54,756 nt of DNA from Candidatus Parcubacteria bacterium (GCA_018646705.1 JABGUG010000009.1:1-54756); one strand, 5' to 3'. Counted from the first letter of the stretch, positions 3,835-49,195 are shown. Notes: generated by a model from the letters alone, not told the origin. A program made the numbers and translations.

Positions 3835-6153
3835 ATGGAAGAATTATTTGAAAAATTCAATAAATCAACCAAGAATATACGCCTTAGTAATAAAGAGCGT
3901 GATCAAATGGATCATATAGTTACTGCTGTTATGGATGAATTTCCTATCCAAAAAAAGGTTGAAACAAAACAAAAAGAAAAAAAGGTAAAGATAGAAAAGC
4001 CTTTTAGATTTTTTGGTTTGCTTCCAGAAAAACTTGCTTACGTGGCACTCATGTTTGTGATTGTTGTAGGAACTGGTGCTGGTACTGCTTTTGCATCAGG
4101 AGATGCTTTGCCTGGAGAGTTTCTCTATGGTTTCAAAGTAGATGTGGTAGAAGAAGTAAAATCAAAATTTCTTTCTTCATCTCAAGCAAAAGCACAATAT
4201 GCATCAGAGCGTGTACTTATGAGATTACAAGAGATCCAAGAGCTTATTGATACAGATGTAGAGATTGATGACAAAATTATTAGAAAGGTAAATGAAAAAG
4301 TAAAAGAACATAGTAAGGGTGTTGTGCGTGCTACTGGTTCATTGCAAGAAGATGGTGACTCTGAAGCAATTATGGATGTTATTGAAGATCTCCAAGAATC
4401 ACTTGGTGCTTATAATAAATTATTGTTATCACTTATTGAAAAGGAAAATGACTTACGTGTAGTATCTAAATTGTCTGATGTATTAGAAAACATGGAAGCA
4501 ACTGAAAAAGCAGCTAAAACTGCTCAGATTGAACTTGTTGTTGGAGATGATGAAGATTATGTACACGAAACAGAAGGTAAATCAAAAACTACAACAGGTA
4601 GTCTACTTACTACAGGTGTTTCAAAAATAAATATATCTGCCCCATATGCAGGTGACGAAATTATGATAGGGACACCATTATCAGTTGTATGGGAAGTTAC
4701 AGAAGAGCCTAAAACCGATTTGTTTATATATGTAGAATTATGGGATGATGAAGGGTCTTTTGTAGGGTATATGAAATATGGTCAGGCCACTGCACGAGAG
4801 CACATTGCAAAAGGAATGGTATTCAATTGGAATCCAAAATATGTTTTTAGAATTATTTCAGGACAGGTAAAATGGGTAGAAATTAATCCTGGAAAATATC
4901 GTATTCGTATTTCTACAACACGAGAATACAGATCAAAAATAGTTGAATACGAAGGAGAGACTGGAGTATTGTATATACAAAGACCTCCATATGTAATATC
5001 GGGTAATACATCACCTGCAGAGACAAAGATCGTAGAAATATCAGATAGCGCAAGTTCTGGAGAAAAAAACCCTACTGAAATATCAAATGAACGTAGATTG
5101 ACTATAAGTATGCCACACAATTATTCTAGGTTGAAAATTGGGCAACAAAGTCAAATTTGGTGGAACGTCAATGACAATAATAAGGAAAACGCTCCAGGAT
5201 ATGTTCGTTTGGTAAATGCTGACTTACCTAATGAGAAACGCAATATTACATTTCTAGATAATCTTGCAAACAATCCCAAAGATTCTAATAAAACATGGTG
5301 GGGTAATGGATTTGCTCTTTGGACTGTGCCAAATGGTGTTACACCAGGAAGATATTATATTGAAATAGGCGATCGTTATGATAGTAATTTTTATGCACGA
5401 AGTTTTACATTTATTATATATGAAGATGTAGAAGCCAAGGTAGAAGTTTCACAAAAGCACATTGGCCCAATGAATATTTATGTTGGTCAAAATCATGTAA
5501 AGATTGCAGAGTTTGAAGTGCGTACGAATAAACCTGTAGCTCTTACCAATCTTAGAGTTTCATGTAAGTCTTCAAGTGGTCCACAATCGTTTGATAATAT
5601 GATGTTAGAATCTTCTTTGCAAGATAAGTATCAAACAAAAAGAGTTTCCATGATGTATGATGAAGAAAGTGTGTCATTTACTGGTTGGGAGTTTTATGGA
5701 GATAGAAATAAGCGTCATATTATTGAAGACAGAGAGGTGTTTTATGTTTATGCAAATATAAATTCTATTTTAGAAACGTCAGTAATGTCATGTGGTTTGT
5801 GGGAGTCAAATAGAATTAGTTTTTATGACTATGACAAGAAAAAAACTATTTCCGGAGATGGGCTTGCGTCATTTAATCATGGTTTTTCAGGAGTATTTGA
5901 TATCATAGGACAAAAATCTGAAGATTGGGATAAAAAAACTCCATACTATCTCACCTATGAATACCTTCAGATTTTAGAAAAAATTGGTATAGATCCATCT
6001 TCTATGCCGGAAAAAATGACATACCCATTGAGAGATTGTCTTGTAGGGCAGATTGGATTGAAAAGGTATGATACACTTTGGTATCAAAGAGATAAAGTAT
6101 CACTTGATGATGCATGGAGAGCATTACCATGTGCGAAATATTTGTCTAACTAA
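3835..6153 (+). CDS. single-pass membrane protein, putative anti-sigma partner with a large extracytoplasmic domain
   Basis: 772 aa with a short cytoplasmic N-terminus, one TM (AYVALMFVIVVGTGAGTAFA), a coiled-coil stretch and then a beta-rich region. Placement directly after the ECF sigma gene suggests the role. Confidence 0.5.
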   Translation: MEELFEKFNKSTKNIRLSNKERDQMDHIVTAVMDEFPIQKKVETKQKEKKVKIEKPFRFFGLLPEKLAYVALMFVIVVGTGAGTAFASGDALPGEFLYGFKVDVVEEVKSKFLSSSQAKAQYASERVLMRLQEIQELIDTDVEIDDKIIRKVNEKVKEHSKGVVRATGSLQEDGDSEAIMDVIEDLQESLGAYNKLLLSLIEKENDLRVVSKLSDVLENMEATEKAAKTAQIELVVGDDEDYVHETEGKSKTTTGSLLTTGVSKINISAPYAGDEIMIGTPLSVVWEVTEEPKTDLFIYVELWDDEGSFVGYMKYGQATAREHIAKGMVFNWNPKYVFRIISGQVKWVEINPGKYRIRISTTREYRSKIVEYEGETGVLYIQRPPYVISGNTSPAETKIVEISDSASSGEKNPTEISNERRLTISMPHNYSRLKIGQQSQIWWNVNDNNKENAPGYVRLVNADLPNEKRNITFLDNLANNPKDSNKTWWGNGFALWTVPNGVTPGRYYIEIGDRYDSNFYARSFTFIIYEDVEAKVEVSQKHIGPMNIYVGQNHVKIAEFEVRTNKPVALTNLRVSCKSSSGPQSFDNMMLESSLQDKYQTKRVSMMYDEESVSFTGWEFYGDRNKRHIIEDREVFYVYANINSILETSVMSCGLWESNRISFYDYDKKKTISGDGLASFNHGFSGVFDIIGQKSEDWDKKTPYYLTYEYLQILEKIGIDPSSMPEKMTYPLRDCLVGQIGLKRYDTLWYQRDKVSLDDAWRALPCAKYLSN

Positions 6154-6169
6154 ATATAGTTCAAAAATA

Positions 6170-6221
6170 AAAACAGCCTATACGTAGGCTGTTTTTTTGT
6201 TGAGACGCGATAAATCGCGTC
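6170..6221. terminator. bidirectional terminator region between convergent genes
   Basis: AAAAACAGCCTA-TACG-TAGGCTGTTTTTTT has A/T runs on both sides. The perfect palindrome GACGCGATAAATCGCGTC (6204-6221) lies next to the clpB stop. Confidence 0.7.
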
Positions 6222-6227
6222 CTTACT

Positions 6228-8873
6228 TTACTTTTTTATTTCTATTTTGTCTTTTACCACATCAACTTTTACACTATCACCCTCATCAATTTTCTTTTCA
6301 ATTATTTTCATAGCAAGGGGATCGAGTAATTTGGTTTGAATCACACGCTTTAGTGGTCGTGCACCAAGATTTTCATCATAACCTTTTTCAGAGAGCCAAT
6401 CTTTGGCTTTTTCAGTTATATTAATTTTTATCTTTTGTGCTTCAAGTCGTTTTGTAACAAGTTCAAGTTGAAGATCAACAATAGATCGGATTTGTTCTTT
6501 TTCAAGTGTGTGGAAAATAATGATTTCGTCAACACGATTTAAAAATTCTGGTTTAAAGTGTTCACGAAGTTGATCCATGACACGATCATTTATTTTTTCT
6601 TCTTTTTGTTTGGTTCCTTTTTTACCACTCGTTTTTGCCTCAAATCCAAAGTCACCTTTGCGTCCGAGTGAAACAATAAGTTCACTCGCAATGTTACTGG
6701 TCATTATGATGACAGTATTTTTGAAATTTACTTTTCGTCCCTTAGCATCAGTAAGATGTCCATCTTCTAGAATTTGTAACATAACATTGAACACATCTGG
6801 ATGAGCTTTTTCTATTTCATCAAAAAGTAGAACTGAGTAAGGTTTGCGTCTCACAATTTCAGTTAGCTGTCCACCTTCATCAAATCCTATGTATCCAGGA
6901 GGGGATCCGATCATTTTGCTCACGGCGTGCTTTTCCATATATTCACTCATATCTACTCGTACCAGTGCTTCTTCGTCATTGAATAAGAATTCTGCAAGTG
7001 TCTTTGCAAGTTCAGTTTTACCAACACCAGTAGGACCCATAAAGATGAAGGATCCGATAGGACGTTTTTCTTCTGAAATACCCGCACGACTTCTACGAAT
7101 TGCATTTGATACAGAAGTGATTGCTTCTGCTTGTCCTACGACACGTTTTTTGAGCTCGTCTTCCATTGTAGCAAGTTTTATTACTTCGTCTTGAAGCATT
7201 TTACTCACTGGAATTCCTGTCCATCGTGCGACAACACCTGCAATATCTTCTTCAATAACTTCTTCTTTCAAGATACTAGATTTTTTTTGTAAGTCAGCAA
7301 GTTTTTCTTCATATTTTTTTATAGCTTCTTCGATCATTGGAATTTTTCCATAACGAAGCTCAGCTACTTTTTGTAAGTCACCTTTACGTTCTTCTATTTC
7401 TGCTTCTTGCTTTAGTTTATCAATTTGTTTTTTATTATCTCTAATCTTAGTAATAATTTCTTTTTCATTTTGCCATTTCATTTCAATTTCTTTGCTCTGA
7501 TCTTTTAAATTTGCAAGCTCTTCTTTTAGTTTTTTCTGACGTTCTTTACTGTCATCATCTTTTTCTTTGTGTAGAGCTTTTAATTCAATTTCAATTTTCA
7601 TCATTTGGCGTTTCATTTTATCAAGATCATCTGGCATAGAGTCGATCTGCATTTTGAGTGCACTAGCTGCTTCATCAATTAGATCAATTGCCTTGTCTGG
7701 TAAGAATCTGTCAGTAATGTAGCGACTTGATAGATGAACTGCTGCCACAAGTGATGGGTCTGTAATTCGTACACCGTGATGTACTTCATATTTTTCTTTG
7801 ATACCACGCAAGATTGCGATTGCATCTTCCTCGCTTGGTTCAGTGACAAGTACTGGTTGGAAACGACGTTCAAAAGCAGCATCTTTTTCAATATGCTTTT
7901 GATATTCTTTCAAAGTGGTTGCACCGACCATGTGTAGTTCGCCACGTGCAAGACCAGGCTTTAGCATGTTACTTGCATCCACTGCACCTTCTGAGCTTCC
8001 TGCACCTACAATAGTATGTAGCTCATCTATGAAGAGCACTATCTTACCTTGTGCATCAGTAATTTCTTTTATTACTGCTTTGAATCTTTCTTCAAACTCA
8101 CCTCTAAATTTTGTTCCAGCAAGAAGAGATCCGAGATCAAGAGAAATAATTTCTTTGTCTTTCAAATTTTCTGGCACATCTCCATTTACAATACGTTGAG
8201 CTAGACCTTCTGCAATAGCAGTCTTACCAACACCAGGCTCACCAATGAGTACAGGATTGTTTTTTGTACGTCTTGTAAGCACTTGCATGACACGACGAAT
8301 TTCATCATCACGTCCAATGACTGGATCGAGTTTTTCTTTTCGTGCACGTTCAGTCAAATTAAGCCCATACTTTTCAAGCGCTTGGTAAGTGCTTTCTGGA
8401 GTAGGGGAATCAACACGCTGTGTTCCGCGAATTGTTTTCAAAACATTCAAAATATCGTCATACTGGACGCCTTGTCGTGATAGGGCGTCGCTTACTGGGT
8501 TTTTGTTTGTAAGAAATGATAAAAGGAGGTGTTCTACAGAAATAAAATCATCTTTCATCTTCTTTGCTTCTTTGTCTGCATTTTGCAATATATATAACAT
8601 GGATTGACCAAGCATCACCTGGCCCATTCCACCACCTTGGATCTTTCCTGGTTGTTTTGTAAGCCCATCAATCATTTTTTGTGTTTCTTCCTTCAATTCT
8701 TCAATAGTCGCATTTAGTTTTTTGAAAATAGAAATAACAACACCTTCTTCTTGGTTGAGAAGGCTTAAGAATAGGTGAGGAGGTTCAACTTGTGGTTGAC
8801 CATTCTCATTAGCGATTCCCTGAGCCGTTTGAATAGCTTCCTGGGATTTATTGGTAAAGTTCTGAGGCATCAT
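6228..8873 (-). CDS. clpB: ATP-dependent chaperone ClpB (two AAA+ modules with a coiled-coil middle domain)
   Basis: Walker A motifs GEPGVGKT and GPTGVGKT, with a long coiled-coil insert between the modules. Start moved from 9011 to ATG 8873 ([15 protein letters not shown]) because the first 46 track codons read through Rep-A copy 2. Confidence 0.92.
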
Positions 8874-8908
8874 ACGCTTGTCTTTTATAGAAATATATTT
8901 TTGAATAT

Positions 8909-8984
8909 TGAGATACGGATTTCCAGATAATCCAGATTTACAGATATTACATCCGTAAATCTGGATTATCTGTATATTAGGATA
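8909..8984. repeat. Rep-A copy 2 (inverted orientation relative to copy 1)
   Basis: Perfect 18-bp arms CAGATAATCCAGATTTAC (8924-8941) and GTAAATCTGGATTATCTG (8955-8972). It lies in the clpB 5' leader. Confidence 0.9.
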
Positions 8985-9004
8985 GTAAAAAACAGGTAAG
9001 TTAT

Positions 9005-9031
9005 TTATCACTCTAATAACCCGAGTGATAA
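9005..9031 (-). promoter_or_regulatory. CIRCE-like inverted repeat (candidate HrcA-type operator) on the clpB promoter
   Basis: TTATCACTC-N9-GAGTGATAA versus the CIRCE consensus TTAGCACTC-N9-GAGTGCTAA. It differs by one symmetric substitution and starts 1 nt downstream of the -10 box. Confidence 0.5.
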
Positions 9032-9032
9032 T

Positions 9033-9060
9033 ACTATAGCATATTGGAAAAAGTTGTCAA
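9033..9060 (-). promoter_or_regulatory. sigma-70-type promoter for clpB
   Basis: On the minus strand: TTGACA (9060-9055), a 16-nt spacer, then TATAGT (9038-9033), preceded by TGC. Confidence 0.6.
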
Positions 9061-9098
9061 TATATGCTAATATTATAGCATAATTTAAGTTTTTTATA

Positions 9099-9299
9099 TT
9101 GAAAATCGAAGTGGGGGAAGCACTCTCCAAGATCGAAAGGGCCAACCGTATGTGGAGGAAGACGTTTTCAGTGAGGCGCATGTGTGCACCCAGTGAGGTG
9201 CTACCTGCTATGGAGTCGGCCGAGGCGGGTCGTCTCATTGTGGAAATCCTCGCGATCTCCTGTCTCTCGGTCTTCTCGGTTCTGTCAGTCCTGATCTAG
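9099..9299 (+). CDS. GC-rich islet A: ORF or gene fragment with a hydrophobic C-terminal tail; no credible start signal
   Basis: Hand-counted GC by codon position in this frame is about 35/67, 29/67 and 46/67 (GC3>GC1>GC2), which is coding-like. The C-terminus LIVEILAISCLSVFSVLSVLI is TM-like. The only start at the AT/GC boundary is TTG and there is no SD. An orphan AGGAGG follows the stop. Confidence 0.3.
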   Translation: MKIEVGEALSKIERANRMWRKTFSVRRMCAPSEVLPAMESAEAGRLIVEILAISCLSVFSVLSVLI

Positions 9300-9372
9300 G
9301 TCTAGGAGGGGTTATCTGACCTAATAATAGAGATTTGCTTCCCACCCTCCGCTTTGGTTTTTAATTGCATCT

Positions 9373-9936
9373 ATGGGAAAAATTCGTACGTTTATAGCGT
9401 TTCGTGTTTCAGATGAAGTAAAGGGAGAATTGAAGCATGTGCAAGATGAACTTCAAAAGAAAAATAAGAAAGCGCATGTCATGTGGTCAAAATCTCGTGG
9501 GTTTCATGTTACAGTTCAGTTTCTAGGAGAGATAGAAGAATTTGAAATCGAACAGGTAAAAGAAGCGCTTCTCGATATTGCAAATACCCATCATGCGTTT
9601 AAATATTGGATTGATAGACTTGATGGGTTTCCAAATCCTGTACATCCAAAAATTATTACCATGAGATGTGAAGAAGAAAAGCATGCCGGAGATGCAATTA
9701 ATAAAGACTTTGTAAAAAAATTAAAAGAATTGAATTTAGTACATGATGACAAGCCATGGAAACCACATATTACACTTGGACGCAATCGTGGTGATGCGCT
9801 TATACAAGGTTTTGATACGATTAAATTTGAAAAAAAGACATGGTTAGTTGATACTATAGAACTTATTAAAAGTGATCCAAAGCCAGGTGGTTCTGGATAT
9901 ACTATTTTGGAAAGTTTTGAACTTAAAAAAATATGA
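9373..9936 (+). CDS. thpR: RNA 2',3'-cyclic phosphodiesterase (2H family, LigT/ThpR)
   Basis: Two H-x-T motifs (FHVTVQF and PHITLGR) at the expected spacing. 187 aa. Confidence 0.85.
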   Translation: MGKIRTFIAFRVSDEVKGELKHVQDELQKKNKKAHVMWSKSRGFHVTVQFLGEIEEFEIEQVKEALLDIANTHHAFKYWIDRLDGFPNPVHPKIITMRCEEEKHAGDAINKDFVKKLKELNLVHDDKPWKPHITLGRNRGDALIQGFDTIKFEKKTWLVDTIELIKSDPKPGGSGYTILESFELKKI

Positions 9937-10688
9937 AGATACTCGGAGTTGAAATAGACAATGTTACAAAAACAGAAGCTCTTGGTAGAGTTGAAAATTT
10001 TTTAGAATCAAAAACACAACATAAAATTTTTACTCCAAATCCAGAAATGCTTGTTGACGCAAGACGAGATCATTATTTTAAAAAAGCATTAAATTCAGGA
10101 GAGCTTAATATTCCAGACGGATTTGGTTTGTCTCTTGTATCTTTTGGAAAAGTAAAAAGAATGGCAGGGGTAGATTTTATGAAAGATATATGTAAACTAG
10201 CTGAACAAAAAAAGTACTCAGTTTATTTTCTTGGGAGCGGGAGTAAGGAAGTGGTAGAAAATTTGAAAAATAATATACAAAAACAATTTCCAGATTTAAA
10301 AATAAAAGGAGTTCATACAGGTCATGAGGTAAAAACTTTGAAGGTTGACGAAAAAATACAGCTCGTACTTGATAAAGAAAAAAATAATGACTTAATTGCA
10401 GATATAGTAATGCATGCGCCAGATATTTTGTTTGTAGCATTTGGACATGGTAAGCAAGAGAAGTGGGTATATGAATATTTGAGAGATTTGCCAAGTGTAA
10501 AAATGGCAATGGGGGTTGGTGGGGCATTTGATTTTCTTTCAGGTAATAAAAAACGCGCTCCAAAATGGATGCGTAAAATGGGACTTGAATGGTTTTATAG
10601 ATTAGTGAATGAACCAAGTAGGTTTAGACGAATTTGGAAAGCGACAGTAATATTTTTATATTATTCAATTTTTAAAAAAGCTCATTAA
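9933..10688 (+). CDS. WecB/TagA/CpsF family glycosyltransferase
   Basis: 251 aa with an N-terminus of the type MKILGVEIDNVTKTEAL..IFTPNPEMLV and a C-terminal WFYRL..EP.R..R pattern. Its ATGA start overlaps the thpR stop. Confidence 0.8.
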   Translation: MKILGVEIDNVTKTEALGRVENFLESKTQHKIFTPNPEMLVDARRDHYFKKALNSGELNIPDGFGLSLVSFGKVKRMAGVDFMKDICKLAEQKKYSVYFLGSGSKEVVENLKNNIQKQFPDLKIKGVHTGHEVKTLKVDEKIQLVLDKEKNNDLIADIVMHAPDILFVAFGHGKQEKWVYEYLRDLPSVKMAMGVGGAFDFLSGNKKRAPKWMRKMGLEWFYRLVNEPSRFRRIWKATVIFLYYSIFKKAH

Positions 10689-10720
10689 AAACGAATGCCA
10701 CCGAACCTAAGTTCGGCGGC
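10686..10720 (-). terminator. rho-independent terminator of the islet B transcript
   Basis: On the minus strand: GCCGCCGAAC-TTAG-GTTCGGTGGC followed by ATTCGTTTTT. The T-run overlaps the stop codon of the convergent tagA-like gene. Confidence 0.75.
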
Positions 10721-10763
10721 GGTCTGCCTGAATGCATTGTGCGCATGGCGGCTCTCCTTGTGT

Positions 10764-11009
10764 CTAGGGCCTGGGCTCGATGGTCACGCTGACGATCTGG
10801 TTGAAGGGGAGAGACCTCCCACTTCCACGGAAGTAGACCATCTCTTTTTTCGCGTCCACACCGTCGATCGTGCCGAGTTGGCACTGGCGCTGTCGGTTGC
10901 CTTTCAGCTCGATCGTGACCTGACGTCGTGGAAAGGGCATTGCCCCATCTTTTCGACGTGACTCCTTACGAAGGGTCTCGATTCCGCTGTCGGTGACTTC
11001 ATGGGGCAT
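10764..11009 (-). CDS. GC-rich islet B: 81-aa hypothetical protein
   Basis: AAGGAG lies 8 nt upstream of ATG 11009. GC by codon position is about 49/81, 36/81 and 56/81 (hand count). The sequence is MPHEVTDSGIETLRKESRRKDGAMPFPRRQVTIELKGNRQRQCQLGTIDGVDAKKEMVYFRGSGRSLPFNQIVSVTIEPRP. It has its own terminator. Confidence 0.6.
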   Translation of the reverse strand: MPHEVTDSGIETLRKESRRKDGAMPFPRRQVTIELKGNRQRQCQLGTIDGVDAKKEMVYFRGSGRSLPFNQIVSVTIEPRP

Positions 11010-11096
11010 TGGTGACACTCCTTGTCTCGTCCACGAAAAATGGGACGCAATACACCTTAACAAATAATTAATCATTTTGCAAATTTATTAAAGTAT

Positions 11097-11861
11097 ATGT
11101 TATCACAAAAAATTCAAAAACATCTCAAACAACTCCAACAAAAAAAGTTTCGTAAAGAGTTTGAAGAGTTTATTGTTGAAGGAGTAAAAGGAGTTGAAGA
11201 GGGTCTTAATTCTGATGCTGACGTAGCTTTACTTGTAGTAGAAGGAAACAGAAGGGATGAAAATGATATTGCAGAACTTATTACTCTGGCAGAAAAAAGT
11301 GAAATACCTGTGGAATTTTGTGGTCGCAAAGATGTCGACGACATAAAGACTACAGACACTTTTCCTGGAGTTCTTGCAGTAATTGGTCAAGAGCAACTTG
11401 ATCTCGAGGATGTGGTGGAAGGTCCTATCATTTGCCTAGATGAAGTAAAAGATCCAGGAAATCTTGGAACAATTATTCGTACTGCAGATTGGTTTGGTAT
11501 AAAAAATATTGTACTTAGTGAGAAATGTGTTGATGTATACAATCCAAAAGTAGTAAGAAGTACTATGGGCTCTATTTTCCATGTAAATATTTTGCGTTCT
11601 GAAAATATCTCAAAGACGCTGGAAAGATTAAAAAAAGAATTTGAATATGAAGTAAATGCCCTTGATATGGAAGGTAAAGACATTACTAAATTGAAACCAA
11701 AAAACAAAGCAGTATATCTATTTGGAAGTGAGTCTCATGGTGTTTCAGATGCCCTTGAAGAGCTAATAGATAACCGTTATACTATATCAGGGTCTGGAGA
11801 TGCAGAATCGCTTAATTTGGCTATTTCTGCAGGGATTTTAATGTCACGATTGTCATCCTGA
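11097..11861 (+). CDS. TrmH/SpoU family RNA 2'-O-methyltransferase
   Basis: SpoU motifs NLGTIIRTADWFG, FGSESHGVS and LNLAISAGILM. The last two codons and the stop (TCA TCC TGA) come from the Rep-B arm. Confidence 0.85.
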   Translation: MLSQKIQKHLKQLQQKKFRKEFEEFIVEGVKGVEEGLNSDADVALLVVEGNRRDENDIAELITLAEKSEIPVEFCGRKDVDDIKTTDTFPGVLAVIGQEQLDLEDVVEGPIICLDEVKDPGNLGTIIRTADWFGIKNIVLSEKCVDVYNPKVVRSTMGSIFHVNILRSENISKTLERLKKEFEYEVNALDMEGKDITKLKPKNKAVYLFGSESHGVSDALEELIDNRYTISGSGDAESLNLAISAGILMSRLSS

Positions 11862-11973
11862 ATCCCGTAGAGGGTGAAGGATCTTTCCGAAGATGAAATT
11901 TACTTAAGTCAACAATCAATAATCTATAATTGAACGAGGTAGGAGAGATTCTTCGCTTCGCTCAGAATGACAG
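11850..11973. repeat. Rep-B locus (two inverted arms around an AT-rich spacer)
   Basis: Left arm TTGTCATCCTGAATCCCGTAGAGGGTGAAGGATCTTTCC. The right arm GGTAGGAGAGATTCTTCGCTTCGCTCAGAATGACAG is the reverse complement of GTCATTCTGAGCGAAGCGAAGAATCTCTCC. Confidence 0.85.
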
Positions 11974-11979
11974 ACACTT

Positions 11980-13488
11980 ATGATTAAAACACGCTTCGCA
12001 CCATCACCAACAGGTTTCCTACATGTTGGAGCACTTCGCTCAGCACTTTATGCTTATTTATTTGCCAAGAAAAATGGCGGAACTTTTTTACTTCGTATTG
12101 AGGATACTGATCGTGAACGATTTGTGGAGGGTGCAGTTGAAAATATGGTCAGTGCGTTACATTGGTCTGGTATCACGATTGACGAAGGTGTAGATATGGA
12201 AGAAGGGACAGGTCTAGACCTGTCCGTGACAAACGGTAAAATTATCCAAAAAGGCAATAATGGTCCCTATATTCAGTCAGAGCGTTTAGAAATTTACAAA
12301 AAATATATTGACCAACTCATAGAGCAAGGCGATGCATATTATTGTTTTTGTACAAAAGATAGACTGAAGGAAGTTCGTGAATATCAGGAACTCAACAAAC
12401 TTCCTACTGGATATGATGGACATTGTCGCGATCTAGATGTAAATGAAGCAAAAAGACGCGTTGAAGCAGGAGAAGAATATGTGGTTCGAATGAAAATGCA
12501 AAAAGAAGGTATAACTATTGTAGAAGATATGGTTCGTGGAAAAGTTGAATTCCAAAACCAACTTATTGATGACCAGGTAATCTTAAAGGCTGACGGGTTT
12601 CCAACTTACCACATGGCTGTCGTGGTAGATGATCATGAAATGGGAATTACCCATGTGATTCGTGGTGAAGAGTGGCTTCCGTCAACTCCAAAACACATTG
12701 CACTTTATAATATGCTTGGATGGGAACTTCCTAAGTTTGCACATTTATCAATGTTAGTAAATGAACAAAAACAAAAGCTTAGTAAACGTCATGGGGATGT
12801 GTCAGTAGAAGACTTCAAAGAAAAAGGATATCTACCAGAAGCAATGGTTAATTTCATCGCATTTCTTGGTTGGAATCCTGGTGGTGAAAAAGAAATATTT
12901 AGTTTAAGTGAATTAGAAAAAGAATTTGATTTTGCAAAAGTTCACAAACCTGCCGCAGTGTTTAATCGCGAAAAATTAGATTGGTACAATCGTGAATATA
13001 TCAAGGGTATGGATACATCAGAATTGCTTAAACTTTGTATGCCTTTTTTTATAAACGCAGGATTGCTCGAAGATGTACAAGAAAAGAATGATACTTGGCT
13101 TATGAATGTGATTGATCTTGAAAAGGAGAGAGCTTCAACACTTATGGAATTGGTAGATGGACTTAGCTTTATTTTTGCAAAAAAACTTGCCTATGATTCA
13201 GAGTTACTCGTTTGGAAAAAGTCTACGAGTGAAGAATCAAAAGAAAGACTTCAATTACTTTTGGAATTTTTGCAAAACATAGAAGAAGGGGATTGGTCAA
13301 AGGGAAATCTCGAAGAAGTTGTCTTTTCTTGGATAAAAGAGAAGGGTTTTGGAAATGGCGATATATTATGGCCTATGCGCGTATCTTTGAGTGGACAAAA
13401 GAACTCTCCAGGACCTTTTGAAATCGCGACTGTTCTTGGAAAAGAGGAATCTCTAACAAGAATTAAAAAAGCTATCGAACTTATTTAG
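11980..13488 (+). CDS. gltX: glutamate--tRNA ligase
   Basis: PSPTGFLHVGALRSALY (HIGH region) and KLSKRHG (KMSKS region). 502 aa. Has an extra ~20-aa segment (VDMEEGTGLDLSVTNGKIIQKGNN) ahead of GPYIQSER. Confidence 0.92.
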   Translation: MIKTRFAPSPTGFLHVGALRSALYAYLFAKKNGGTFLLRIEDTDRERFVEGAVENMVSALHWSGITIDEGVDMEEGTGLDLSVTNGKIIQKGNNGPYIQSERLEIYKKYIDQLIEQGDAYYCFCTKDRLKEVREYQELNKLPTGYDGHCRDLDVNEAKRRVEAGEEYVVRMKMQKEGITIVEDMVRGKVEFQNQLIDDQVILKADGFPTYHMAVVVDDHEMGITHVIRGEEWLPSTPKHIALYNMLGWELPKFAHLSMLVNEQKQKLSKRHGDVSVEDFKEKGYLPEAMVNFIAFLGWNPGGEKEIFSLSELEKEFDFAKVHKPAAVFNREKLDWYNREYIKGMDTSELLKLCMPFFINAGLLEDVQEKNDTWLMNVIDLEKERASTLMELVDGLSFIFAKKLAYDSELLVWKKSTSEESKERLQLLLEFLQNIEEGDWSKGNLEEVVFSWIKEKGFGNGDILWPMRVSLSGQKNSPGPFEIATVLGKEESLTRIKKAIELI

Positions 13489-47143: not shown

Positions 47144-48478
47144 TTACATCCCTTCGCCAATCGCTTCTGGTTTTTTACCAGTCTCTTTCATTACTGCTTT
47201 TTCAAATAGAATAGCACCCACTACCGTAACTATTATGACGGCAAGTAAGGCAGCTGCTGCCATATCTGGAGAAAGAACATTATTTGCAATAGCTACGGCA
47301 ACGAATACGAGTCCCACTTCTCCGCGAATAGCCATTGCAAGTGCAACTTGATGACCTTCTTTTCTATCTTTGAAGAAATATTTGACAACATATTTACCTG
47401 CTAGACCAAGGATTGTAAATACGAGTGCCCATCCCCAAGCTTTTGGAGAAAGCAATGCTTCTTTGGTAAGCATGGTACCAATTGATACCAAGAAACCACC
47501 AACAAAAATATGAATATAACCCTCAATCTTTTCCCACGTACTATGTTTAATTTCATTATCAACTTTTGATAGTACAACACCTATACCAAATGCACCAAGT
47601 ACTGGTTCAAGACCAACTACTGCTGCAATTGTACCACCAAGGATTAGCGAGCCAAAGAAGAAACGAGTGTAAGGACCAGTGGTATCTTTATAGTGTTTGT
47701 CAAGGTATTTTGCGATCTTGTCAGCGAGTCCCATACTCCACATGATATATGCTCCACCAAAGAATGCAATAACTGCAACACCAAGCCAGATAAGACTCAT
47801 AACATCGAGTCCTACTGCTTCACCATGTGCACCTACTGCAGATCCTGCAGCAGACAATTTTGCGAGGACAGTCAATACTAGTACCCCTAAAATATCATCA
47901 ATAACTGCAGCTCCGATGATTCTATTCCCCATGTTACTTTCAAGCTTTCCGGCAGCTTTTAATGCTTCGACTGAAAGACCGACAGATGTTGCGGTAAAGA
48001 TACCTCCAAGGAAGATAGCTGGAAGCCATTCCATACCAATTACATAATGTCCAAGAGCCGCAAATGATACAAGTGGTACGAGTACTCCACCAAATGCAAC
48101 GAGTGTTGCAATACCGATATTCTTCTTGAGAAGTTCAAGATCAAAGTGAAGACCAGCTTCAAATAAGATAAATAATACACCGGCAAGACGTGCTATTTCT
48201 ACACCCATTGCATCAGGCATAACTACTCCTAAAAGCGCTGGACCTGCGATAATACCCATGATGATCTTTCCTGCCATTGGTGCAATACCAAACACACGTG
48301 CAAGACGCCCACCAAAACTTGCAAATACTGCGAGAAATGCAATATCTAGTAAGATTGGTAAGATCGTATTGATCTCATGATGATGGCTATGAAGCAATGC
48401 CCCACGAAGATAATGCAACGCAACCGCTGCAACAGCCGTTTCTACTGCAACCAGTAGAATTGTCTTTATTTTTTGCAT
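47144..48478 (-). CDS. cation:proton antiporter (Na+/H+ exchanger family)
   Basis: About 12 hydrophobic helices and a glycine-rich membrane core. Start moved to ATG 48478 (MQKIKTILLVAV) because the upstream 25 track codons translate a Rep-B arm. Confidence 0.8.
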   Translation of the reverse strand: MQKIKTILLVAVETAVAAVALHYLRGALLHSHHHEINTILPILLDIAFLAVFASFGGRLARVFGIAPMAGKIIMGIIAGPALLGVVMPDAMGVEIARLAGVLFILFEAGLHFDLELLKKNIGIATLVAFGGVLVPLVSFAALGHYVIGMEWLPAIFLGGIFTATSVGLSVEALKAAGKLESNMGNRIIGAAVIDDILGVLVLTVLAKLSAAGSAVGAHGEAVGLDVMSLIWLGVAVIAFFGGAYIMWSMGLADKIAKYLDKHYKDTTGPYTRFFFGSLILGGTIAAVVGLEPVLGAFGIGVVLSKVDNEIKHSTWEKIEGYIHIFVGGFLVSIGTMLTKEALLSPKAWGWALVFTILGLAGKYVVKYFFKDRKEGHQVALAMAIRGEVGLVFVAVAIANNVLSPDMAAAALLAVIIVTVVGAILFEKAVMKETGKKPEAIGEGM

Positions 48479-48493
48479 ACTATTTATGCTTAG

Positions 48494-48590
48494 GTCATTT
48501 TTAACAGAATTAAGTAAAGTCGAGGAATACCCTTTTTTACAATATCTTTGCAAAGAAAGGGATTCCTCCGCTCGTCTACAACTCAGTTAC
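48494..48590. repeat. Rep-B locus (divergent)
   Basis: Inner arms GAGGAATACCCTTTT and AAAGAAAGGGATTCCTC. The right arm reverse-complements to GTAACTGAGTTGTAGACGAGCGGAGGAATCCCTTTCTT. Confidence 0.65.
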
Positions 48591-48708
48591 AATAACAAAT
48601 TAATAAAAGTCACCCTTTTTAGGGGCGGCGATATTATACAGTATTTTAGTCTTTTTTTCAATGGAATTTGGGGATAAAAAAGAGATACATGATATGGAGC
48701 ATAAAACA

Positions 48709-48778
48709 AAAAACACTCACCAACCCCTTGATTTATCTCTATAACAATCGAGGCAAATCAAGTCTGATGAGTGTTTTT
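48709..48778 (-). terminator. long hairpin plus T-run ending the islet C transcript
   Basis: The 11-bp outer stem AAAAACACTCA/TGAGTGTTTTT and the 8-bp inner stem CTTGATTT/AAATCAAG are followed on the minus strand by TGTTTTATG. A second hairpin CCCACCC/GGGTGGG lies at 48798-48818. Confidence 0.55.
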
Positions 48779-48832
48779 CTGAACACCATCGACAGCTCCC
48801 ACCCTTTCGCTGGGTGGGACAATAAGACATGG

Positions 48833-49042
48833 TCAGGCGGCTTCGGTCCACACTTCTTTTGAGTCCGAGTATGAAGTGCGTCCAACCACCTTACCTGCAC
48901 CATCCACGGCGCAAGTGTTGAACCTTCCCGAGTTCTTAAGAGGGTCTGTCTTGCGGTACTCAACCTCCCACTCATCGGGAAACTCGGTCAGAAAGAAGGA
49001 ATCGCCGAACTCCAGGTTTTCGAGCACTGTCTTGATTCTCAT
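48833..49042 (-). CDS. GC-rich islet C: 69-aa hypothetical protein
   Basis: MRIKTVLENLEFGDSFFLTEFPDEWEVEYRKTDPLKNSGRFNTCAVDGAGKVVGRTSYSDSKEVWTEAA. GC3 is about 44/69 (hand count). Its ATG overlaps the stop of an upstream 17-codon ORF (ATGA). Confidence 0.55.
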   Translation of the reverse strand: MRIKTVLENLEFGDSFFLTEFPDEWEVEYRKTDPLKNSGRFNTCAVDGAGKVVGRTSYSDSKEVWTEAA

Positions 49043-49092
49043 CTCCTAACCCTCCGAAGGTCCTGGACCGTTGAAATGCGTCGCTTTCTCAT
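49039..49092 (-). CDS. 17-codon leader ORF translationally coupled to the islet C ORF
   Basis: AGGAGG lies 8 nt upstream of ATG 49092. The peptide is MRKRRISTVQDLRRVRR*. Its TGA stop shares ATGA with the next start. Confidence 0.4.
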   Translation of the reverse strand: MRKRRISTVQDLRRVRR

Positions 49093-49130
49093 GAGACAAT
49101 CCTCCTGCATCTCAGGTGTTTCTTAATAAA

Positions 49131-49159
49131 GATACTATACAAAAAACCCCTTAATGTCA
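49131..49159 (-). promoter_or_regulatory. sigma-70-type promoter for the islet C transcript, embedded in the atp operon terminator
   Basis: On the minus strand: TTGACA (49159-49154), a 17-nt spacer, then TAGTAT (49136-49131). The -35 box sits in the loop of the atpC terminator hairpin AAAAAACTCCTT-GACATT-AAGGGGTTTTTT. Confidence 0.5.
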
Positions 49160-49195
49160 AGGAGTTTTTTAAAATTTTGCTTCTATTCTTGTTAG

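Follow-up and report, generated by a model that had tools for sequence, protein, structure and literature searches.

A GC-rich islet of about 340 bp, here called islet C, lies between the atp operon and a Na+/H+ exchanger gene in the genome of a tiny marine Patescibacteria (Parcubacteria-like) bacterium, and it is probably an import. We give about an even chance to the reading that it is a lineage-specific, imported single-gene cassette whose gene still works. The data presented below show that islet C is real, population-fixed, and sharply bounded. Taken alone, it is an ordinary and unremarkable orphan, since it is one of ~70 small-gene inserts in a 1-Mb genome; the class to which it belongs, which may be foreign or may be kept GC-rich by some other force, is the interesting object.

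The host genome assembly comprises 1.04 Mb in 64 contigs and is 97% complete, with 36% GC. The window, by which we mean the whole stretch of DNA analyzed (54,756 nucleotides), is the entire contig C32. A sequence-only reading of the window had described islet C as the third of its foreign-looking small-gene cassettes, termed A, B, and C, inserted just downstream of the atp operon. The features of the locus, in minus-strand order, are as follows.

49141–49170, minus strand: intrinsic terminator hairpin of atpC, AAAAAACTCCTTGACATTAAGGGGTTTTTT, in host-type AT-rich DNA; its loop contains the −35 box of the next promoter (from sequence and promoter scan).
49132–49160, minus strand: promoter-like site TTGACA-17-TAGTAT, with 10/12 matches, just upstream of islet C (a consensus match only).
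48780–49120, minus strand: GC-rich islet C, ~340 bp, 53% GC within 35% GC DNA (from composition, edge profile, and junction-spanning contigs).
49039–49092, minus strand: 17-codon arginine-rich upstream open reading frame (ORF), MRKRRISTVQDLRRVRR, with AGGAGG 8 nt ahead of its ATG (as read from the sequence).
48833–49042, minus strand: 69-codon orphan ORF, with GGAGG 8 nt ahead of its ATG and a codon-position GC of 0.51/0.41/0.63 (from ORF call and codon-position GC).
48798–48818, minus strand: GC hairpin CCCACCC/GGGTGGG, 15 nt past the stop codon and without a U-tract (from sequence and fold).
48709–48778, minus strand: long AT-rich hairpin of 70 nt followed by a T-run, terminator-like and outside the GC-rich part (from fold).
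48633–48661, minus strand: promoter-like site TTGAAA-17-TATAAT, with 11/12 matches, for the downstream antiporter gene, where host-type DNA resumes (from promoter scan).

The GC fraction is 0.529 for positions 48780–49110 and 0.524 for the 69-codon ORF, compared with 0.348 for the window. A 20-nt GC profile places the islet edges at ~48780 and ~49120, and on both sides the values drop to 0.15–0.35 inside 20 nt. The islet is flanked by atpC (49624–49196, minus strand) on one side and by the Na+/H+ exchanger (antiporter) gene (48553–47144, minus strand) on the other, and third-position GC (GC3) is 0.63 in the 69-codon ORF versus 0.22 in atpC, 0.20 in atpD, and 0.26 in the antiporter gene. Islet C combines deviant composition and codon usage with sharp boundaries, the traits by which an acquired islet is recognized. 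The sequence-only reading was right in its account of the GC-rich region and of the ORF at 49042–48833, for which GC3 had been counted by hand as 44/69; the GC hairpin that it noted is present, with a loop of 7 nt, and the long hairpin folds in the way it had described.

No flanking direct or inverted repeats exceeding shuffle level were found at islet C, and the region is single-copy, a second copy being absent from the genome. A 7-nt inverted match at the two edges (GAACACC/GGTGTTC) could be due to chance. A transposable element or MITE was considered for islet C and rejected, given only this short inverted match, direct repeats no higher than shuffle level, and a single copy. The Na+/H+ exchanger gene next to the islet (47144–48553) has no counterpart in G001, a genome of the same genus, and a 26%-identical one only in G005; its GC of 0.39–0.44 is somewhat higher than the window mean, and because of this composition it may be an older acquisition itself.

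Islet C is no assembly artefact, because both of its junctions are spanned unchanged in contigs from 8 runs. In Logan contigs from these seawater or marine runs, which belong to different studies and date from 2016–2020, the depth of the islet equals that of its flanks, each junction is crossed by single contigs, and neither differences within the islet nor joints that skip it (an empty site or a variant) were found across the 8 runs. The identical ORF is also present on 7 independent ENA/JGI metagenome contigs, with 100% identity through the islet. The sequence-only reading had allowed that islets of this kind might be absent from raw reads; the 8 runs, in the form of Logan contigs, carry islet C. 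A chimeric join with another organism's DNA, produced in assembly or binning, could have been suspected from two observations, namely that 29 of the 128 contig ends of the metagenome-assembled genome (MAG) lie inside islets and that one public contig bearing islet C is chimeric. Independent runs and assemblers, with single contigs over both junctions at flank depth, refute it for islet C, and we regard its probability as negligible. The chimeric public contig (L003, ena:ERZ27250217:k141_868333, 889,564 nt) changes near its end (locus positions ~4800–6356), with ~72% identity to the window up to a conserved atpD motif and 100% beyond. It is uninformative on islet C, since the organism switch falls inside the conserved atpD stretch.

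Several features of the islet point to a protein-coding gene. Among the six frames, the codon-position GC pattern in which GC2 is lowest and GC3 highest is best in the frame of the 69-aa ORF, and its values are those of the usual coding pattern of a genome of ~55% GC. ORF length alone is no evidence of a gene, because an ORF of at least 69 codons occurs in 20% of islet C shuffles. Better arguments for coding are the two pairs of Shine-Dalgarno (SD) motif and ATG at ideal spacing and the ATGA in which the TGA of the 17-codon ORF overlaps the main ATG. The frame in which the 17-codon ORF lies has no stop for 27 codons, a stretch that reaches the islet edge at 49122, and the ORF could be a leader coupled to the main ORF or what remains of the 3′ end of an upstream donor gene.

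The same segment might be taken for a structured noncoding RNA, given that GC-rich segments of AT-rich genomes are often RNA genes and that, among the 20 least coding-like islets of this genome, 6 consist of rRNA fragments or tRNA clusters and 14 have no Rfam match. Moreover, a 431-nt region around islet C folds on the minus strand with a z of −4.5. This value stems from the two terminal hairpins, however, and the 296-nt core yields a z of only −1.29 on the minus strand and +0.29 on the plus strand. Rfam 15 was without a match at its gathering score, and what appeared when E was relaxed to 10 was at chance level, whereas the codon-position GC pattern and the two well-spaced SD–ATG pairs fit a coding sequence, so that an RNA is a very improbable account of islet C. 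The mir-like Rfam matches of the 70-nt hairpin were dismissed as chance.

The 69-aa protein has no relative in ~15 billion predicted proteins. It matched nothing in Pfam, PHROGs, NCBIfam, PADLOC, or the PDB sequences, apart from one sub-threshold TSP3 repeat in Pfam (E of 0.011), and Pfam likewise gave no match for three other long open frames and the 27-codon upstream frame. A word-indexed search of 5.8 billion protein clusters recovered the protein itself only. A full HMMER search of 1.84 billion representatives recovered the protein along with three long proteins made of repeats, of which one is a eukaryote-type Ig I-set array, one an RTX protein, and one a low-complexity repeat; these were judged spurious because they are mutually unrelated and their scores are sums of 4–7 weak repeats. 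Nothing was found in 40 related genomes, in GTDB representatives, or in IMG/VR, nor in 50,697 phage records or 72,556 plasmids searched with both DNA and tblastn. The resemblance to small all-beta proteins of phages and plasmids, proposed in the sequence-only reading, thus found no counterpart in PHROGs or in the phage and plasmid records. A single-sequence AF2 model of the protein has a short helix followed by an all-beta part at a pLDDT of only 61, and Foldseek comparison of this model with the PDB returned nothing with an E of 0.001 or less. These searches yielded no identifiable donor and no homologues in other lineages, which counts against the reading of islet C as an imported working gene.

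A route of expression can be proposed from the features listed above. Transcription of islet C would start at the TTGACA-17-TAGTAT site embedded in the atpC terminator, or would reach the islet by read-through from the atp operon, or both, and would end at the two hairpins, the GC-rich one and the long one that precedes a T-run. Translation would be initiated by SD pairing at AGGAGG and GGAGG, each 8 nt before an ATG, and the 17-codon ORF that ends in ATGA would couple translation into the 69-aa ORF, unless it is a leftover from the donor. The predicted product is a small, acidic, cytosolic, mostly beta protein. The organism itself was not detected in 3 metatranscriptomes.

Phage morons are autonomous promoter–gene–terminator units of deviant composition that sit between conserved genes. 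Islet C is moron-like in that one additional gene of deviant composition stands among conserved genes, preceded by a promoter-like site and followed by a hairpin. Unlike morons, it resides in a cellular chromosome, with no phage gene nearby and no match to a PHROG or a phage record, and its promoter and main terminator are outside the islet, in DNA of the host type. The promoter-like site (49160–49132) and the U-tract hairpin (48778–48709) are both in AT-rich host-type sequence, and only the GC hairpin without a U-tract is inside. The unit looks self-contained; it is not demonstrably so, because of this placement of its promoter and main terminator. With that reservation, the earlier description of islet C as a deviant small-gene cassette downstream of the atp operon is supported, given its SD sites and because both a known RNA and an artefact could be dismissed. 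The GC hairpin is not a punctuating element shared between islets, since CCCACCC...GGGTGGG occurs once in the genome.

The use of SD sites separates the islets from the native genes of this genome. SD-like motifs, defined as GGAG, GAGG, or AGGA within 17 nt before the start, precede 4.5% of 693 native-type ORFs (at least 150 aa, with GC3 below 0.32) versus ~30% of GC3-rich ORFs, a crude set with false ORFs included. Islet genes frequently show a clear SD site, for example AAGGAGGTGAAAT-ATG, and these observations confirm the earlier proposal that SD-type ribosome sites mark the islets. The 3′ end of the host MAG's own 16S rRNA is unassembled. In the same-family genome G002, the 16S rRNA ends in GGATCACCTCCTTTCT and retains the anti-SD tail CACCTCCTTT (L191, G002:C10, 2975–3000). 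To judge from this relative, the anti-SD of the host is most likely intact, and the host ribosome can then read SD-led islet genes. The SD route would thus be open to islet C, the relative's 16S rRNA retaining the CACCUCCUUU tail, and it is a route that native genes do not use.

The whole genome was scanned for islets, which had to reach 50% GC over 200 nt or more and to contain a 100-nt peak of 58% GC or higher; islet C is slightly below this peak threshold and was added by hand. The scan found 77 islets that amount to 37.6 kb, or 3.6% of the genome, at one per 13.5 kb. A genome-wide scan for short windows of elevated GC had been suggested in the sequence-only reading, together with the question of whether the encoded proteins are related; they are not, there being no DNA similarity among the islets and no protein similarity among their best ORFs. 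Three islets in 55 kb had seemed unusual, but with 77 in 1.04 Mb about 4 are expected per 55 kb, which puts the window at or below the genome average. A donor shared by islets A, B, and C is not supported either, as they resemble one another neither in DNA nor in protein sequence, and in 3-mer composition they stand no significantly closer to one another than islet triples drawn at random do (fraction 0.059). The 72 non-RNA islets form one broad unimodal GC distribution (0.547 ± 0.032). Most of the internal non-RNA islets (39 of 45) overlap no native-type ORF, and the 6 exceptions do so by 118–284 nt. The larger islets carry complete genes, among them an ArsP-type permease (Pfam model 2–293 of 294), a metallophosphoesterase, and a uridine kinase, and many of the smaller ones appear to encode whole small proteins of membrane or secreted type.

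Comparison with G001, which has ~80% DNA identity to the studied genome and is syntenic with it over positions 8300–12300 of the window, reveals how sister islets turn over. Islet A (window 9086–9390) separates the thpR promoter from the start codon of that gene. Its site is empty in G001 (L037, G001:C41, 900–960), where only ~28 nt are present and the thpR promoter abuts the start codon; relative to that state, the studied genome has ~290 nt inserted and ~12 nt replaced, without target duplication. The slot of islet B, between a tagA-like gene and trmH (window 10659–11094; L037 2330–2630), is occupied in G001 by an unrelated GC-rich islet with a peak of 0.62. The flanks of this slot are 80% identical, and the ORFs within it, of 103 aa here and 88 aa in G001, are unrelated. 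The locus of islet C falls in an assembly gap of G001, in which contig C2 starts inside atpD and both atpC and the antiporter gene are unassembled. A separate observation in the same part of the window is a palindromic repeat of ~70–90 nt upstream of clpB (window ~8892–9010), which matches more than 70 places in G001, on both strands, with identities of 72–100%, mostly 80–93%. It looks like a MITE- or REP-like family that is genus-wide, and it is probably the repeat that the sequence-only reading had called Rep-A.

The import of islet C is favored by its sharp edges, the empty site of islet A, the refilled slot of islet B, and SD sites that are alien to the habit of the host. On this reading, a piece of a GC-richer genome would have been acquired horizontally and come to rest as islet C in the spacer that separates atpC from the antiporter gene. 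The DNA-uptake channel ComEC is present in the genome, and Ku is absent.

Other islets have been kept across the split between the two species. On contig C15, three islets are conserved in G001, with identities of 69%, 76%, and ~77–83%. A 78-codon ORF in one of them has codon-position identities of 0.83/0.80/0.67, a dN/dS of 0.45, and a dS of 0.50, and its GC3 is 0.62 in one species and 0.68 in the other; native trmH has a dS of 1.02, a dN/dS of 0.115, and a GC3 of 0.20 and 0.25. The conserved islets do not drift toward the host GC3 of 0.22. Some islets thus either predate the divergence of the two species or were exchanged later, and others are gained or lost over time.

The islet with the ArsP-type permease (C52:1286–2254, L040) belongs to a family at home in this phylum. 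Its best matches are all Patescibacteria, with 85% identity to Candidatus Parcubacteria MAG GCA_002869205.1 followed by matches at 64–69%. The permease gene has a GC3 of 0.74 in the studied genome (57% C at third positions), of 0.60 in the 85% homologue, and of 0.25 in a 69% homologue on an AT-rich contig (homologues L068 and L070). The 85% homologue adjoins a GC-rich multi-gene stretch of 4 kb. A compositional edge runs inside the permease gene of the studied genome, as its last 24 codons fall to a GC3 of 0.46. With a dN/dS of ~0.12 between the studied genome and the 85% homologue for the permease, and of 0.45 for the conserved C15 ORF, islets of this class encode proteins under constraint. 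For the uridine-kinase islet, the sole relative among GTDB representatives is a Pirellulaceae MAG, a match that speaks for import, if at just 40% identity.

The conserved C15 islets and the permease make a simple and recent import uneasy, because some islets stay GC-rich across a split with a native dS of ~1 and the permease family is native to Patescibacteria. They raise the alternative that the islets, islet C among them, are native, a second class of fast-evolving, lineage-specific, SD-dependent small genes kept at high GC, where the force could be mRNA selection, GC-biased conversion at recombination-prone slots, or continual renewal. The three C15 islets, with GC3 values of 0.62 and 0.68 despite a native dS of ~1.0, speak for it, as does the permease with its Patescibacteria matches and its GC3 of 0.74, 0.60, and 0.25 in three lineages. 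A further point in its favor comes from a distant relative of another family, G027 (L017, G027:C4, 1976–2601), in which two tandem paralogous orphan genes of 102 and 106 aa directly follow atpC on the opposite strand; the GC of this segment is 0.41–0.52 versus 0.18–0.30 further downstream, bar one window of 0.48. The G027 orphans bear no relation to the islet C protein. A pattern survey of metagenomes for the slot downstream of atpC gave no match with a first pattern, and a second pattern matched atpD of all kinds of bacteria. Against a native class stand edges that change inside 20 nt, the empty site of islet A and the unrelated content of the islet B slot in G001, and the dS of 0.50 in the conserved islet, which is below the native 1.0 and fits a later transfer; there is also no known mechanism that would hold GC3 at 0.6–0.8 in a genome with a GC3 of 0.22. 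We consider this alternative unlikely, if a serious contender. The earlier description of the islets as foreign-looking therefore stands in part: sister islets A (empty in G001) and B (refilled there) behave as insertions do, whereas a foreign origin is unproven, given that no donor was found, that some islets are conserved and GC-rich, and that the permease is of a Patescibacteria family.

Alternatively, islet C may be captured DNA that is inert, a random fragment of a foreign operon fixed by drift, with an ORF that is neither expressed nor selected. The upstream frame that is open from the islet edge to the ATGA is what the truncated 3′ end of a donor gene, with its operon neighbor behind it, would look like, the ORF has no homologue, no sign of selection, and a length that is not significant, and the junctions of islet A, with a small replacement and no target duplication, are as in illegitimate recombination; the presence of ComEC is in keeping with such capture, and the absence of Ku speaks against it. 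However, a streamlined 1-Mb genome with AT-biased mutation should delete or erode 340 bp of junk, yet islet C is invariant over samples from 2016–2020 and its ORF is complete, with SD site, start, and stop intact. Other islets, moreover, are under purifying selection. Inert DNA is therefore a rather doubtful explanation of islet C, and an imported cassette with a working gene is the reading we retain.

Adjacent islets are in three instances separated by AT-rich spacers that nearly duplicate one another.

C15 (24374–25250): near-duplicate spacer of 48 nt, 96% identity.
C52 (1–2400): near-duplicate spacer of 58 nt, 91% identity, consisting of a terminator hairpin with TTGTCA in its loop and then TATA.
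C14 (11541–12842) and C40 (1–2697): near-duplicate spacer of 36 nt, 92% identity, common to both contigs.

The C52 spacer has the same terminator-plus-promoter design as the DNA upstream of islet C, although islet C has no such duplicated flanking spacer. The spacer common to the end of C14 and the start of C40 suggests that these are alternative joins in the population. Duplicate spacers would be the expected trace of recombination between an incoming, spacer-bearing cassette and a resident spacer. Two of the 29 contig ends that lie inside an islet are rRNA fragments, and strain-variable slot content is likely to be behind the contig breaks in islets; if so, assemblies break there because strains differ in what the slots hold.

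Integron gene cassettes are small, mostly orphan, compositionally deviant ORFs with attC sites, in which R″/L″–L′/R′ boxes and a GTTRRRY core are found. The islets are integron-like in consisting of small, deviant orphan ORFs and, elsewhere in the genome, in forming tandem units parted by repeated, hairpin-containing spacers. Unlike integron cassettes, they are dispersed rather than collected in one array, and their spacers vary from array to array. By inspection, neither hairpin at islet C shows the RYYYAAC...GTTRRRY cores of an attC. Speculatively, AT-rich, SD-less Patescibacteria may maintain a separate and exchangeable set of GC-rich small genes, translated by way of SD sites and housed in fixed intergenic slots, whose cassettes strains and species would trade through recombination at the AT-rich terminator/promoter spacers, in the manner of an integron and without a recognizable integrase or attC. 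Islet C would then be one occupied slot.

A survey of Patescibacteria MAGs from an aquifer reported acquired DNA of up to 13% of genome length, found that 61.6% of genes in acquired regions are without an assigned function, and proposed competence and pili genes as the entry route (PMC12455944). As in that survey, the genome studied here is a streamlined CPR genome with an acquired share, the islets making up 3.6% with mostly orphan genes, and ComEC is present. The survey dealt with multi-gene islands and single transferred genes found by phylogeny or composition tools, whereas the units described here are single-gene islets of 250–1000 bp between native genes. They bear SD sites in a genome otherwise SD-less, a slot can be filled differently in a congener, and the terminator/promoter spacers that part tandem units are duplicated. 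Horizontal gene transfer and genomic islands in Patescibacteria have thus been described already (PMC12455944); as far as we have found, the fine-grained, SD-marked, slot-wise form has not.

The value of islet C is that of a clean, read-verified example of a pattern that extends over 3.6% of a 1-Mb genome, in which SD-translated, GC-rich small genes are set amid the non-SD genes of an AT-rich genome and the content of a slot can differ between sister species. One practical consequence is that the islets fragment assemblies, since about a quarter of the contig breaks of the MAG fall in them. If the islets are imports, they show that ultra-small, host-dependent bacteria sample foreign genes, and they provide a handle on donors or hosts. 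If they are instead kept GC-rich by some force, that force would be unknown biology.
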